NCBI GenBank assembly: GCA_963804955.1
Contig: CAWDSQ010000035.1
Location: 27,373-91,372, forward strand
Source of the DNA: an uncultured delta proteobacterium
GTDB lineage: Bacteria > Desulfobacterota > WTBG01 > CAIYCZ01 > CAIRTM01
DNA: 64,000 bases
Reading direction: 5' to 3'
Shown: one piece after another, positions 28,283 through 55,704 of the stretch
Numbering within the stretch: position 1 is the first letter of the stretch
Layout of the letters: every line of letters begins with the position of its first letter
Position numbers and translations under genes: made by a program
The notes under the pieces: model-generated
Seen by the model: the letters and a program-made list of their open reading frames with translations, nothing else
The model's database searches: none
What the model was told of the DNA's origin: nothing

Positions 28283-28681
28283 ATGCTGAAGAAAAAGAGC
28301 AAGGGCATGATCGAGGCCGAGATCAGCGAGGCCATGATCAAGTTTGAAAAAGAGTATATGGGCCGCGGGCCACTGGAGACAAAAACCTATATTGTTGAAG
28401 ATATGGTCATCGTGCGGCTTACCAAAGTGCTGACCCGTGCAGAAGAGCAGCTCACCAGAACAGCCGAAGGTCTGGCGCTCATAAAAAAGGTACGGGTGAC
28501 GCTGCTTGAAGAGGCCCGTCACCTTCTTGAGGCCATAATCAAGGATATCGCCGACAGTCAGGTGCTGAGCATGCACACGGATATCAGCACGACAACCGGT
28601 GAGAGGGTTATCATTTTCGTTCTTGACCGTAACCTTGAGGAGGTGTTAAAAAAATCTATTGAAAAACAGAAAGTGTTATGA
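28283..28681 (+). CDS. DUF2294 / MpsC family protein
   Basis: KGMIEAEISEAMIKFEKEYMGRGP..LTRAEEQL..SMHTDISTTTGERVIIFVL. Confidence 0.88.
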   Translation: MLKKKSKGMIEAEISEAMIKFEKEYMGRGPLETKTYIVEDMVIVRLTKVLTRAEEQLTRTAEGLALIKKVRVTLLEEARHLLEAIIKDIADSQVLSMHTDISTTTGERVIIFVLDRNLEEVLKKSIEKQKVL

Positions 28682-28689
28682 GATAATAC

Positions 28690-28850
28690 AAGAAGATTGG
28701 AAGATTGTGTTAAATACCTGAGGCATGACACGGGGCGTTCGCGGGCAAAAACCGGCGAAATCCCTTGAGCCGATAAGGTGGTTAATAAATAAGCCAATAT
28801 CAGACAAGCCCTCTCAATGCGGGCCCGCTGATATTGGCTTTTTGTTTTTT
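28690..28850 (+). promoter_or_regulatory. Structured leader / transcription attenuator upstream of the PEPCK-like gene
   Basis: Three small hairpins, then a 13-bp terminator stem (28791-28803 with 28828-28840) plus T-tract ending at the GGAGG RBS (28851). Confidence 0.65.
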
Positions 28851-28860
28851 GGAGGTGTTT

Positions 28861-30628
28861 ATGGATAGAGCTAAATTCATGATTTTTTGCCCGTAAGGTG
28901 ATCATCTATACCAGGGGCAAGGTATGCGAAACGCCGGAAGAGTTGCTGTCAAGCCCGTTGTTTACAGAACTGCTGCGCCGGTATTTTGATGAGCTTGCCG
29001 AAAAGCAGTCCTACCTTATAAAGGTGCTTGGCGACAGGCCGGCCGATGCCGAAACGATCAGCCTGCTTGTGGAAACACTGCGGCATCTTGCAAAGCTGCC
29101 GTATACAAAAGTACCCAGCGTGGTGCCGGGCGCCGAGGTGTTTTTTCGTGACATGGCCCTGATCAGCGAGTTTATCGAGCAGCTTTATAACTACTGGCGC
29201 AGCCATGACCGGTTTCTGCTGTGCGATTCCGAAGGCGACATTCTTGACCAGCGCCCCTACAGGACGTTCAATTTTTCCATAGAAACGCTTACGCATCTGA
29301 TCCGGAGCGTCTACCGCGACATCCAGGAGAATATCACGCTGTCGCATCCGCGCATTTACCGTCAGGTCACGGCGGGAGCTGAAATAGCAGCCATATCCCT
29401 GCCGCAGAAGCTGCAGCTGCCAGGGGGTGTCTATGAGAAGCTTTATAAGATACCGGTCATCAGGCAGGTTCTTATCAATCCGCCCCTTATTTTGAACCCG
29501 CCCATGAACAAGCGGACCGGGCAGTTCGTGAAGGTGGAGCGCAACCCGCTTGAGTTAGTGGAGTTTCATCAGGATGAATGGCTCTGCTATCCGGCCAAGG
29601 TCGGACCGCTGTTGATACTGGTGTATTTTCACGCCCGTTTTTTTGAGCTTGGGTTTACCCTGTGCAATCTGTTCGAGCTTGCTGAAGATGAGGATTTGAA
29701 CAGGCCACCCGATGCTGTCTATGCCTTCGGCGCGCCAGCCGGCAGCCTTGACGGGCTTGGCGTTTTCCCGACGGTTTTCCATGAAGATGCTGAACATGAT
29801 TTGCTTGTTGCAGCAGCGCCCTGTGATGATGCTTTCGGCTATTTTGGCTATCTTAAAAAAATGGTGCTCACGCTGCACAATATCAAGATGATGCAGGCCG
29901 GAAAACTGCCATTTCACGGCGCATTTGTCAAAATGCTCCTGAACGATTACGGAGAGAAAAATATCCTGATCATCGGCGACACGGGCGCGGGCAAGTCCGA
30001 GACACTGGAGGCCCTCAGAACCCTGGGTGAAGGCCGCATCAAAGGCATGTTTATCATTGCCGACGATATGGGCTCCCTTGATATTGATGAAGAAGGCCGC
30101 ATCATCGGCTATGGAACCGAGACAGGCGCTTTTCTGCGCCTTGATGACCTGCAGGCCGGCTATGCCTTTGGACAGATCGACCGTTCCATTATCATGAGCC
30201 CCAGCCAGGTGAATGCCCGGATCGTGCTGCCCGTCACGACCTATGCTATGGTCATGCAGGGCCACAGGGTCGATGTGGTGCTGTATGCCAACAACTATGA
30301 GCAGGTTGACGATGAGCATCCGGTCATCGAGCGGTTTACCTCTGTTGATCAGGCTTTCAGCGTTTTTCGCGAAGGCACGGTCATGAGCAAGGGCACAACT
30401 ACCTCGAGCGGTATTGTGCACTCTTATTTTGCCAATATTTTCGGGCCTGCACAGTACCGGCAGGTACATGACCGGCTTGCCACGATATTTTTTAACGCTT
30501 TTTTCAGCAAAGACGTTTTTGTCGGTCAGATGCGCACACGCCTGGGCATTGCGGGATATGAAACCGATGGGCCTGCCCAGGCTGCCGAAGAATTGCTTGA
30601 GAGACTACAGCAGGCAACGAATAAGTAG
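28861..30628 (+). CDS. Atypical phosphoenolpyruvate carboxykinase-like P-loop protein (indel in T-run ~28885)
   Basis: YFGYLKK, LPFHGA, Walker A GDTGAGKSET, IIADDMG; GGAGG then ATG at 28861, long frame resumes by 28898. Confidence 0.75.
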
Positions 30629-30802: not shown

Positions 30803-30859
30803 TTCTCCTCTTAAATTAGAAAATGAGTGGGGTTTTGAAAATATACAGGAGGACACGGT

Positions 30860-31411
30860 ATGCTTGAAGTTCGCTTACATGGAAGAGGCGGGCAGGGATC
30901 AGTCACGTCTGCCGAGCTGTTTGCCGAAGCGGCAATCGGCGAGGGCAAGTACGCCCAGGCTTTCCCCAGCTTCGGTCCCGAGCGCCGCGGCGCGCCGGTG
31001 CGGGCCTTTATCCGCATCGACGACAAAGCCATTCAGCTGCGCAATGAAATTGACGAGCCTGATGTGGTGCTGGTGCTTGATCCCACACTGATTCGGGTGG
31101 TCAATGTGACCGAAGGCTTGAAAAAGGACGGGATTGTCATCTTGAATACCAGCAAGTCCGTTGCTGAGATCAGGAAAGAGTACGGCATCACGGCAAACGT
31201 CGCAACAGTCAATGCCACCAGAATCGCAACCGAAAATCTTGGCCGCCCCATTGCCAATACCACCATGCTGGGCGCCCTGATCAAGGTGACCAATGTTATT
31301 GCCATCGAATCGCTCAAGGAAGCATTCGGGCACCGGTTCGGCAAACTGGGGGAAAAGAATTACAAGTCATGCCAGGCAGCTTTTGGCGAGACGGTAATGG
31401 AGGGACGCTGA
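30860..31411 (+). CDS. porC: Pyruvate/2-oxoacid:ferredoxin oxidoreductase gamma subunit
   Basis: EVRLHGRGGQG, FGPERRGAPV, NTTMLGA. Confidence 0.92.
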   Translation: MLEVRLHGRGGQGSVTSAELFAEAAIGEGKYAQAFPSFGPERRGAPVRAFIRIDDKAIQLRNEIDEPDVVLVLDPTLIRVVNVTEGLKKDGIVILNTSKSVAEIRKEYGITANVATVNATRIATENLGRPIANTTMLGALIKVTNVIAIESLKEAFGHRFGKLGEKNYKSCQAAFGETVMEGR

Positions 31412-31412
31412 C

Positions 31413-31706
31413 ATGGCAAAAAAAGATTTTGAACTGACCTGGAAAGAGATACCTGTCGGCGTCATCGTGCATGAGCCCGGCAATGCAAGCGAATATCAGA
31501 CCGGCGACTGGCGCTCGCAGATGCCCGTGCTGGACAGGGCAAAATGCGTAAAGTGCGGCATTTGCTACCGCTTCTGCCCCGAGCCCTGCATCGTCAAAGA
31601 CGACGAAGGCTATTATGTGGCGGATCTGTTCTACTGCAAGGGCTGCGGCATCTGCGCCTATGAATGCCCCAAGGATGCAATAACCATCGTGAAGGAGGAA
31701 CATTAA
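31413..31706 (+). CDS. porD: Pyruvate/2-oxoacid:ferredoxin oxidoreductase delta subunit
   Basis: TGDWRS, CVKCGICYRFCP and CKGCGICAYECP. Confidence 0.92.
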   Translation: MAKKDFELTWKEIPVGVIVHEPGNASEYQTGDWRSQMPVLDRAKCVKCGICYRFCPEPCIVKDDEGYYVADLFYCKGCGICAYECPKDAITIVKEEH

Positions 31707-32883
31707 TGGCAAAACGAGTCGGAGCAGAAGGATCGTTTGCAGTTGCCGAGGCTGTTCGTCTTGCCGATACGGATGTTGTGGCAGCCTATCCCATAACACC
31801 TCAGACCCATATCGTCGAGCGCCTCTCCGAAATGGTGGCCGACGGCGACCTTAATGCAAACTTTATTTATGTTGAATCCGAGCATTCGGCCATGAGCGCC
31901 TGTCTGGGCTCTGCGGCTGTTGGCGCCCGCACCTTTACCTCCACGGCAGGCCAGGGCCTTGAGCTGATGCATGAGGTGCTCTATCTTGCCTCATCCATGC
32001 GCCTGCCGATTGTTATGGCGGTTGCCGACCGTGCGCTGTCGGGCCCCCTGAATGTCTGGGGCGACCATTCAGACGCCATGGCAACCCGCGAATGCGGCTG
32101 GATTCAGTATTTCGGCGAAAACGCCCAGGAGGTGTTTGACCTGACCCTGTGCGCCTTTAAAATAGCCGAGCATCATGATGTGCTCTTCCCGGTCATGGTG
32201 CATATGGACGGTTTCCATGTCTCGCATGTGGTTGAGCCCTATTTGCTGCCTGACAAAGAAGAGCTCGGAGACTTTTTGCCCCCGATCGACTATCCCTATC
32301 CGCTTGACCCCAATAAGCCGGTAACCATGGGCGCTTTTGCCCCGCCGGCGGTCTATTCCGAGTGCCGCAAGGCCCAGGATGTGGCTGTCAACAGCACCCA
32401 TCGGCACCATCGAGAACGTGTGGAACGAATTCGGCAAGCGGTTCGGCCGGCAGTACAAGCCGATTGAGACCTATAAGACCGAAGATGCCGAAACCATTCT
32501 GGTTTCTATCGGCAGCTTCAACCAGATGGCAGCGGTAGCAGTCGATAAGCTGCGCGTCAGAAGGCAAAAAGGTCGGCCTTGTCCGGATTCGCCTGTGGAG
32601 GCCTTTTCCGCTGCAGGCATTCCGCCAGGCAGTAAAGTCAGCCAAAAACGTTGTCGTTTTTGAGCGCTCCATGACCTATGGCGGCACGGTGGGCCCGGTC
32701 TGCGCCGAGGTAAAATCGGCGCTGTACGGCATCAAGGGCGCCCCGCGCGTCATGGATTTCATCGGCGGCCTGGGCGGCAGAGACATGAGCCCGAAGCAGT
32801 TTGAGGCTCTCTTCAAGCGCGCTCAGGAAATATTCGACAAAAACCTTGATATTCAATATGAAACGATTGGAGTGAGAGAATGA
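31706..32883 (+). CDS. porA: Pyruvate/2-oxoacid:ferredoxin oxidoreductase alpha subunit (frameshifted)
   Basis: AAYPITPQTHIVE, ESEHSAMS, GDHSD, GGLGGRD. Confidence 0.92.
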
Positions 32884-53763: not shown

Positions 53764-55306
53764 TTATTTTCCCGGTCGGATGGCAGGTATATAACCGGGT
53801 TCTATCGTCTGCAGGACTTCGCTGCTGCGCAATGGCCGGGTCGCCCGTCCGGTCATGCTCAGCAGAAATGTCGCGCTGCTCGTCTGGTTGAGACCTCCAT
53901 GTGAAGAGGCCATGTCGATAAAGGCTCTAAAGAGCGGATATCCGCTCATGTATCCATCATTGAGAGTTATCATCAGGTCGGACGGGCAAATGACAATGCC
54001 GTGAAAGGCCTCCCATATCCGGGGGGGAGCATTGGGCCATTCATGGTCAGCCGTTGCTGCAAACCAGTCGTCTGCTGAGGCATAACCTTCCGCATCAGCC
54101 TTTCCGGACATGGCCAGCAAAGCGTGTATCGGCTGGTAGCCCAGTACATCCCGGTCAATGACAACATAGCGTAGTTTGCCGCCTTTTTTTTCTATGGCTG
54201 CCGAGCCCCTGTTGTCACGCACGATAACCCTGTCGCCTTGCATATACAGTGCAAGCTGCATCTGAGTCTTCTGCAGCAGCACGTCGGCAACCGCCGCCGG
54301 TCGTCGCGTATGTATGCCCGCATAGGTGACCAGCCCTTCCGTGTCGATAACGATATCGGTATCCGACTGGATTTTGTCCCTCACGGTAAATCCCGCCTCG
54401 TTTAAAATATTTTTTATGGATACGAACTGTGACGGCATGAGGTTGTGGCCGTGGTCGGCCAGTATGGAAATTTTAAGGGCGCCCTGACGCTCCCATAAAA
54501 GCTGAAGGCACAGACGCTCGACTTCGCGCAGGCAGTCATCGACGCCCTGCCTGCCATATCTGCAGACCATGGCTGCGGAGCTGACGACATACACCAGCGT
54601 TACCCGGTCCGGGCTTTGGTCGAGGGTCTGCTTGATGCTTTCCAATTCGCGGCTGAATGTCTTGCGCGTGTTTACAAACCCCAGCCCTTCCCTCATATAG
54701 TCTGCGTTATAGTGCAGGCAGCGCTGCCAGGCGGTCTCTCCGCCCGTGGCAGCATCCCAGAAGCGATTACATATGCGATTGATGCGCTGATCGTAGAAAT
54801 AATTGTTTGTTCCCGCAAGCGGAGGGGCCTGCAGAATCTGGTTGAAAATAACGGCGCTCAGCGTCGGGAAGGGAGCGATCACCTTCTGGGGCGGCGGAAA
54901 CCAGCTGAAATGGCCGGCAGTATAAAAATCAAGCACGCACTGATAGGGTATTGAATCCAGCAGAATAATCAGATGCGGCACACTGTCTGTCTCATAGTCA
55001 TTAATGCGGTATATTCGGTCATAGCGGCCGTCTTCTTCATGGGCATAGGCAAGAGAGGTCGTCCGGTTGTCTGTATCGGCCTGCAGCGCAAAGTCGGCCC
55101 TGCCATTGCCGTTGACATCATAGCGGATTTCCTGTGGCGTTGCGGGAAAGCGGGGCATCGGGGAAAAACAGGTTTTTTGAGGAGGCGCACCCCAGAGTGC
55201 AGATGCATAGGATTACCGTGAGCACCATTGAAACCAGCCGCATAAAAACGGCCTGGGCTGAACCAGCTCTATGCTTCTTAACTAAACCTGCAATCTTCCG
55301 TATCAT
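53764..55306 (-). CDS. Lipoprotein, alkaline-phosphatase/nucleotide-pyrophosphatase superfamily-like (frameshifted)
   Basis: Lipobox TLGC; IILLDSIPY, APFPTLS, ILADHGH, SSHGGL. Confidence 0.65.
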
Positions 55307-55704
55307 ATGGCTGTTGTATGCCAGCGGAATTCAATTTGCAAGAACGATGTGTGTTTGGTACTGTCTATTCTAAGCGCAGCGGATGTCAGCTTCGAATCGA
55401 TCTGTGTCGCATACTTTTCTCCAAAAGAATGTACGTGATGAAGTCAAGCAGAGTTAACATACTGTCATTGCGATACGATACAGCTCCCGAAGCAGGGGCG
55501 TACTGCCATTGTATACGGGCACAATAAGCTTTTAATCCCCTACTTAGAAAAAGGGGGACACAGGGGGATTTCTTGCAGCCTGATAAATCCCCCTGACGCT
55601 TTTGCGAAAGGGATCAAAATTTAATTCACAGCCCCTCTTTAATAGGCTGTAGAACATCGTGCCTGCGGTATGCCGGCTTCAGAAAAATACAGGCTGAGAA
55701 TAGA

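Follow-up and report, generated by a model that had tools for sequence, protein, structure and literature searches.

A candidate factor-dependent attenuator RNA between an mpsC-like gene and a PEPCK-like gene in an uncultured delta proteobacterium

In the hut operon of Bacillus subtilis, a terminator lies between hutP and hutH, and antitermination at this site depends on HutP, whose RNA site consists of spaced UAG triplets. In leaders governed by PyrR or TRAP, the protein favors termination. Terminator-coupled ON riboswitches with rod-like aptamers include the Na+ riboswitch (DUF1646 motif) and nhaA-I, both of them Rfam families. Here, we analyzed an intergenic region of an uncultured delta proteobacterium (WTBG01; CAIYCZ01; CAIRTM01) within a 64,000-nt stretch of DNA, referred to as the window (assembly GCA_963804955.1, contig CAWDSQ010000035.1, positions 27,373 to 91,372 of the forward strand). 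The region lies between two plus-strand genes, a small ORF of the MpsC family on its 5' side and a 576-aa ORF on its 3' side. Proposed by analogy with hut, the locus would comprise a small regulator gene, then a leader terminator, and then one or more metabolic genes. An initial annotation of this region had described a leader RNA with competing terminator and antiterminator pairings; every sequence string that it named was found where it had been placed.

Layout of the intergenic region and its terminator

The features of the region, in window coordinates, are as follows.

28283..28681, plus strand: mpsC-like gene (PF10057/DUF2294), directly 5' of the leader; Pfam MpsC E value 6.2e-38; listed as an ORF from TTG 28229, the start at ATG 28283 being a guess; protein of 132 aa
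28659..28687, plus strand: sigma-70-like promoter, TTGAAA-17-GATAAT with TG; 10 of 12 matches; overlaps the end of mpsC
28696..28700, plus strand: 5' strand AUUGG of the candidate antiterminator helix P0; pairs with CCAAU at 28794-28798; the -1/+1 pair covaries
28699..28704, plus strand: conserved word GGAAGA; the same in 24 of 24 copies
28705..28789, plus strand: variable hairpin P1; 85 nt here, 30 to 114 nt elsewhere; from minimum-energy folds
28732-28765, plus strand: inner module of P1, GGGG-CG-UUCGC..GCGAA-AU-CCCU; recurs with compensatory changes
28790..28795, plus strand: conserved word UAAGCC; the same in 24 of 24 copies; AAGCC is the base of the terminator 5' arm
28791..28850, plus strand: intrinsic terminator; 13-bp stem, inner stem, and U-run at 28839-28850
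28851..28863, plus strand: Shine-Dalgarno sequence GGAGG (28851-55) and ATG 28861 of the downstream gene; abuts the U-run
28861..30628, plus strand: PEPCK-like P-loop gene (the putative controlled gene); an open frame from ATG 28861 requires T5 in place of T6 at 28883-88

The terminator that the initial annotation had described, at 28791-28850 in our analysis, was borne out by its fold and by covariation of its arms in relatives. Its arms, AAGCCAATATCAG (28791-28803) and CTGATATTGGCTT (28828-28840), form a 13-bp stem that encloses an inner GCCC/GGGC stem (28808-11 with 28821-24) and is followed by T5-G-T6 up to 28850. The element thus has the stable, G+C-containing stem-loop with a U-run directly after it that defines an intrinsic (Rho-independent) terminator. 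The region from 28682 to 28860 folded at -59.7 kcal/mol, compared with -45.4 +/- 4.0 for shuffled sequences (z of -3.5), and 1 of 200 shuffles folded as well. A consensus terminator scan missed the element because its 24-nt loop exceeds the 8-nt limit of the scan. Among 12 compact leaders from the relatives described below, aligned with MAFFT, the base of the terminator was 93.1% paired, against 28 to 56% for slid controls; furthermore, 7 of the 12 terminator pairs varied on both sides, and none of 500 shuffles matched the covariation score. Over 22 copies there were 15 distinct arm sequences, every one of them with a complementary partner. In four compact Spirochaetota copies (L034:1225-1270, L036:1379-1424, L050:1358-1406, and L060:1325-1362), the inner part of the terminator hairpin contains CCUCC; the corresponding stretch in L034, ACCUCCUUUCU, looks like the anti-Shine-Dalgarno sequence at the 16S rRNA 3' end.

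With the last U of the run at 28850 and the Shine-Dalgarno sequence beginning at 28851, a promoter would not fit between the terminator and the PEPCK-like gene. Since its ribosome-binding site is placed directly after the U-run, the PEPCK-like gene in the window can be transcribed only by read-through of the terminator. As part of our best reading, we tentatively take 28690-28850 to be the 5' leader of the PEPCK-like gene, acting as a transcription attenuator. The promoter-like site predicts a transcript start near 28694. The promoter scan, which is weak evidence on its own, returned 6 sites per 4 kb where 3.8 +/- 2.4 were expected, about 1.6 times the shuffle rate, and only 11 of 24 leader copies carry a promoter-like site of at least 9 of 12 matches within 110 nt 5' of GGAAGA. 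A promoter-like site and a strong terminator of its own would suit a free-standing small RNA gene of about 155 nt, running from promoter to terminator and acting in trans, and in some loci the 170 to 217 nt from the terminator to the next start codon leave room for a promoter of the following gene. We regard such a gene as improbable, however, given the U-run abutting the Shine-Dalgarno sequence in the window, the gaps of 63 to 81 nt in L036, L032, and L050, and the constant position of the unit directly before the next gene and on its strand. A leader-peptide attenuator, which would have a short conserved ORF enriched in a regulatory codon, was considered and rejected: the only leader ORF (28725..28868, 47 aa) has no counterpart in the compact copies, whose span between GGAAGA and the U-run is about 100 nt.

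The product of the 576-aa ORF matched no Pfam family, and NCBIfam gave only faint similarity to HprK/PEPCK P-loop proteins. A protein atlas grouped it with clusters whose automatic name is "putative phosphoenolpyruvate carboxykinase" (score, 0.99), and a profile of its family searched against the PDB returned P-loop entries only, at E values of at least 0.35. As assembled, ATG 28861 opens an 11-codon ORF with its stop at 28894-96, and the long ORF runs from GTG 28898. In both same-genus relatives and in a contig from run X2, the T6 run at 28883-88 has one T fewer and the gene reads in frame; the ORF begins at the codon equivalent to ATG 28861 in both relatives. The gene appears to be frameshifted at its 5' end, through either an error in the assembly or a frameshift particular to the strain. 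Immediately downstream of the PEPCK-like gene, ORFs at 30860-32467 on the plus strand resemble subunits of pyruvate:ferredoxin oxidoreductase, another CO2-handling enzyme adjoining the cassette. The first of these (30860-31411), the sole one compared with Pfam, matched POR at an E value of 2.1e-43, and a promoter-like site lies at 30835-30864.

Conserved words, hairpin, and the candidate P0 helix in related leaders

The comparison of homologues that the initial annotation had suggested revealed conservation beyond the terminator. In two same-genus genomes the leader region is 89% and 84% identical to that of the window, and the roughly 100 nt before the terminator are conserved to the same degree as the flanking coding DNA. 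Relatives of the downstream protein were examined in two collections (the best 80 of 459 in genome_contigs and the best 80 of 368 in metagenome_contigs). The protein itself is present in 14 of the 21 genomes of the window's order. A similar leader was found at only a minority of the loci of this protein, with a clear common architecture. In total, 24 distinct leader copies were collected from Thermodesulfobacteriota (the window's group and four more genera of its family) and from Spirochaetota/Leptospirales metagenome-assembled genomes. Within the window's own assembly (87% complete), the whole-genome pattern matched once, at the leader described here.

The conserved unit begins with GGAAGA and ends with an intrinsic terminator, a length-variable hairpin and UAAGCC lying between the two. 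The full order, 5' to 3', is a promoter-like site, 5'-NNGG-AAGA, a hairpin of 30 to 114 nt, UAAG-CCNN, and a terminator whose 5' arm starts with AAGCC. The invariance of GGAAGA and UAAGCC is partly a matter of ascertainment, since most copies were retrieved with a regular expression requiring GGAAGA and TAAGCC. For 20 of 22 copies (all but G001 and G011), the minimum-energy fold of the segment between the two words was a single hairpin whose closure lay no more than 6 nt from either end. The window carries a long-hairpin variant (85 nt) found in Thermodesulfobacteriota. Its inner module (28732-28765) is also present in L105 and L199 and, in a looser form, in L204 and L206, while L008 retains it with compensatory changes (ACGG/CCGU and UUCC/GGAA). 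The Spirochaetota locus L030 encodes a downstream protein 72% identical to that of the window, and the two leaders share both the GGAAGAUUG start and the inner module; from this likeness we infer that the cassette probably crossed phyla by horizontal transfer.

Outside the hairpin, ATTGG at 28696-28700 can pair with CCAAT at 28794-28798 to form P0, in which the GG/CC pairs are invariant in all copies. At the innermost variable position of P0, 19 of 22 copies can pair (U-A in 10, C-G in 6, and U-G in 3; A.A in 3), and the same pair on the MAFFT alignment was C-G in 6, U-A in 3, U-G in 1, and unpaired in 1. When the 5' flank of each copy was matched with the 3' flank of another, 17 of 10,000 permutations reached the observed run of pairs, a count that is not a probability because the copies are related. 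The outer positions are mostly unpaired (-2/+2 paired in 12 of 22 copies and -3/+3 in 8 of 22), and beyond GG/CC only one P0 pair covaries. As predicted from these alignments, P0 is a helix of only 3 to 5 bp, which fits the earlier remark that a ligand or protein would have to stabilize so short an alternative helix. The 3' strand of P0 is the start of the terminator 5' arm, so that P0 and the terminator are mutually exclusive. The AAG(A) and (U)AAG segments between P0 and the hairpin could, in turn, face each other as a symmetric purine-purine loop.

Three of the five pairings proposed in the initial annotation did not prove to be the conserved ones. The GTGTTA/TGACAC pairing (28707-28731) is broken by an uncompensated C-to-A change in the same-genus relative G002, and CCTT/AAGG (28763-28778) is incompatible with the long hairpin seen in the minimum-energy folds of 20 of 22 relatives. 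As to the two alternative partners suggested for the terminator 5' arm, ATTGG was retained, with a covarying pair, whereas TGGTT (28779-28783) belongs to the 3' strand of the long hairpin and is no separate competitor. The hairpin CGG-GCAAAAA-CCG (28742-28754) was also recovered, but as the tip of the larger conserved hairpin at 28732-28765.

The initial annotation had also allowed for a plain terminator of the upstream operon. A strong, intrinsic terminator 110 nt past the mpsC stop codon is what a terminator of mpsC accompanied by chance hairpins would look like. Such a terminator does not account for the preceding 100 nt being conserved like the coding flanks, for the recurrence of GGAAGA, hairpin, and UAAGCC across phyla, for two copies in genome G308 (see below) that lie away from any mpsC gene, or for the lack of promoter room before the downstream gene in the window. 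We consider this explanation highly improbable.

A comparison with catalogued RNAs, also suggested in the initial annotation, matched no family in the window or in nine related loci. No match at gathering thresholds was obtained for the whole window against Rfam 15. In E-value mode, the sole rows for the region from 28500 to 29100 were two to mir-283, at 17.0 and 16.4 bits where the threshold is 50 (E values of 2.7 and 3.9); these chance-level scores arise from the long stem, and the Rfam PyrR and T-box models had no match there. Four rows were returned for the nine related loci, all at E values of at least 4.3. A covariance model (R1) built from five compact copies, and not used for any count given here, recovered its training rows together with L013 (21.8 bits) and L012 (14.5 bits). 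On the long form it left the window copy unmatched and returned only L007 (10.3 bits; E value, 8.8). One further R1 row in the window, at 55237-55307 on the minus strand (12.6 bits; E value, 2.7), is due to AUACGGAAGAUUG; it has neither UAAGCC nor a terminator and is probably a chance match. A literature search, with subscription journals outside its coverage, turned up no paper on this RNA family or on mpsC as its partner. Both the family and the partnership appear uncatalogued; the kind of mechanism, factor-controlled read-through of a terminator in a leader, is already known.

Association with mpsC and the candidate effector

In the window, the PF10057 gene lies directly 5' of the leader on the same strand, and the leader has GGAAGA, a single hairpin, and UAAGCC, with AAGCC as the terminator base. 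Every motif locus with enough upstream DNA proved to have an mpsC homologue on its 5' side when searched by tblastn with the MpsC-like protein of the window. Searches that made no use of the RNA sequence located PF10057 in 10 of 251 Spirochaetota genomes and, within the phylum of the window, in 7 of 201, with a single gene in the window's assembly (87% complete); the two phylum searches and five further genomes yielded 24 PF10057 hits. The exact GGAAGA...UAAGCC unit lies within 450 nt 3' of the gene in 16 of these 24, and by a cruder test a hairpin plus T-run lies within 450 nt downstream in 23 of 24. In the 251 Spirochaetota genomes, a compact-form pattern gave 13 hits, against 8 for a reversed control pattern. 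Six of the 13, in five genomes, were credible (hairpin and full arm complementarity), and all five genomes are PF10057 positive; the other seven, in PF10057-negative genomes, lacked the hairpin, the arm complementarity, or both. No credible leader copy was thus found in the 241 PF10057-negative genomes among the 251.

The RNA keeps company with mpsC rather than with any one downstream gene. The genes that follow the strict motif encode PEPCK-like proteins, GTP-PEPCK, DUF4914, two class I/II aminotransferases, citrate synthase, an MFS transporter, and, in some cases, a GH18-domain ORF followed by a PEPCK-like gene. The last arrangement belongs to one Spirochaetota lineage, in which the GH18-domain ORF stands between leader and PEPCK-like gene (L030:362-1468 and L199:1159-2262, the latter compared with Pfam); in L030 its stop codon overlaps the next start codon, so that the leader would control a two-gene operon there. 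The leader probably decides the transcription of these downstream genes of central carbon metabolism. Genome G308 combines a single mpsC with three leaders: that adjacent to mpsC (L203) lies before an aminotransferase, and those far from mpsC (L215:964-1057 and L222:1904-2012, both on the minus strand) lie, as judged by eye, before DUF4914-like and pckG-like ORFs. Their arrangement makes the three a putative three-member regulon.

In other phyla, variant leaders with the words GGCAGR ... AGGCC follow mpsC and precede genes for monomeric isocitrate dehydrogenase, an M48 peptidase, a Usp protein, and the PEPCK-like proteins of those phyla. We noted such leaders, with GGCAG(A/G) words and with AGGCC placed ahead of the terminator, in L076, L086, L091, L094, and L099, all between mpsC and a PEPCK-like gene, and in L187, L188, L189, and L191, sometimes with two tandem terminators. 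They may represent sister forms of one system.

The best reading of these observations, which we hold with some reserve, is a factor-dependent ON attenuator in which the factor would probably be the MpsC-like protein, a candidate RNA-binding protein. By default, the strong terminator would form and transcription would stop, since P0 is by far the less stable of the two competing structures. A factor that held GGAAGA and UAAGCC together would block the base of the terminator, and RNA polymerase would read on. The held structure would stack on the hairpin and consist of a short NNGG/CCNN helix adjoining a purine-rich 3x3 internal loop (AAG/AAG); the GGCUU beside the U-run would be left unpaired, leading to read-through. 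The most likely factor is the MpsC-like (DUF2294) protein encoded directly upstream, which could pass on a signal from metabolites of the PEP / oxaloacetate / CO2 node. A protein effector is favored because the RNA is strictly linked to a same-strand mpsC whatever the target gene, and because the RNA combines a very small invariant core with a hairpin of free length.

Pfam assigned the upstream protein to MpsC (PF10057) alone, and 1,246 relatives were found at E values of at most 0.001 in a representative library. Its AlphaFold model (pLDDT, 96.1) has an alpha-beta-beta-alpha3-beta-beta-alpha order. With this model, Foldseek gave no match at E values of at most 0.001, and the best VIA-align Z score (6.6) lay below the stated noise level of 7 to 8; the weak TRAPP-Bet3, V4R, and H-NOX rows among these matches at most hint at a ligand-binding fold. 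No HutP chain was among the 50 best structural rows. The sequence, compared with PDB chains, gave only chance-level rows (E values of at least 0.032), and a search of the protein atlas with PF10057 left out gave no usable match. The predicted homodimer scored 0.16 against a mark of 0.42. According to PMC6689103, deletion of mpsC in S. aureus causes no growth phenotype and mpsC stands outside MpsAB function. That dispensability (PMC6689103) and the lack of a clear match of the MpsC-like model to a solved fold both count against the factor-dependent reading, as do the single covarying pair of P0 beyond GG/CC, the partly ascertained invariance of the two words, the occurrence of GGCAGR/AGGCC leaders in other phyla, and the promoter rule that holds in only 11 of 24 copies.

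The initial annotation had seen here a switch of no class known to it. Its leader, its terminator, and the absence of an Rfam family all stand; the small-molecule riboswitch that it implied is not the best-supported reading. A direct metabolite riboswitch would be a transcriptional ON switch in which the rod-like hairpin and internal loop bind a molecule of the PEP/oxaloacetate/CO2 node, or an ion, and thereby stabilize P0, with mpsC only a co-inherited neighbor or another member of the pathway. Features that speak for it are a short closing helix over the terminator 5' arm, a conserved internal loop, and a variable distal stem, the architecture of terminator-coupled ON riboswitches; the metabolic coherence of the controlled genes (PEPCK-like, GTP-PEPCK, DUF4914, aminotransferases, and citrate synthase); the several copies before different genes of G308; and the MpsC-like protein itself, for which no known RNA-binding fold was found. 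However, only about 12 nucleotides are invariant, and these sit in a symmetric loop; the hairpin, whose length ranges between 30 and 114 nt, shows no distal contact that is conserved. Nor does a riboswitch lead one to expect mpsC directly 5' and in the same orientation regardless of the downstream gene, or an absence of credible copies from the 241 PF10057-negative genomes of 251, and no Rfam riboswitch family was matched. We regard a metabolite riboswitch as a serious rival, less probable than the factor-dependent reading but clearly more so than the small RNA gene considered above.

Significance and comparison with known attenuators

Carried further, the factor-dependent reading leads to a broader and slightly more doubtful proposal, namely, that MpsC/DUF2294 may be a new family of RNA-binding, probably metabolite-sensing antiterminators. 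Its site would be the purine-rich symmetric loop GGAAGA/UAAGCC at the foot of a hairpin overlapping the terminator, carried in a mobile cassette across several phyla and switching on enzymes of PEP - oxaloacetate - CO2 metabolism, including a large unstudied PEPCK-like P-loop family. If true, this would supply a first function for the orphan MpsC family, which is named from a neighborhood in S. aureus where the gene proved dispensable (PMC6689103). It would also add one more RNA family that is missing from Rfam and would join PEPCK-like P-loop proteins, DUF4914, GTP-PEPCK, citrate synthase, and aminotransferases in one oxaloacetate/PEP regulon.

The leader would share with the Na+ and nhaA-I riboswitches a hairpin with a conserved internal loop and a closing helix that competes with a terminator placed directly before the gene. 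Unlike those RNAs, it gave no Rfam score above chance in the window or in nine related loci, its motif was found only in genomes with mpsC, and its conserved core amounts to about 12 nt. The PyrR binding loop, the GAG/UAG repeats, and the RAT sequence that mark the sites of PyrR, TRAP, and LicT/SacY are absent here, yet the proposed principle is theirs: a protein would choose between terminator and antiterminator in a leader. Compared with hut, the upstream protein matches only Pfam MpsC and not HutP, and a separate promoter-like site lies between the regulator gene and the leader. The RNA sites differ as well, in that 28690-28850 contains no TAG/UAG triplet and instead carries GGAAGA and UAAGCC on the two flanks of a hairpin. 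What the two systems would have in common, if the analogy holds, is a protein that binds RNA overlapping the 5' side of the terminator and so allows read-through.
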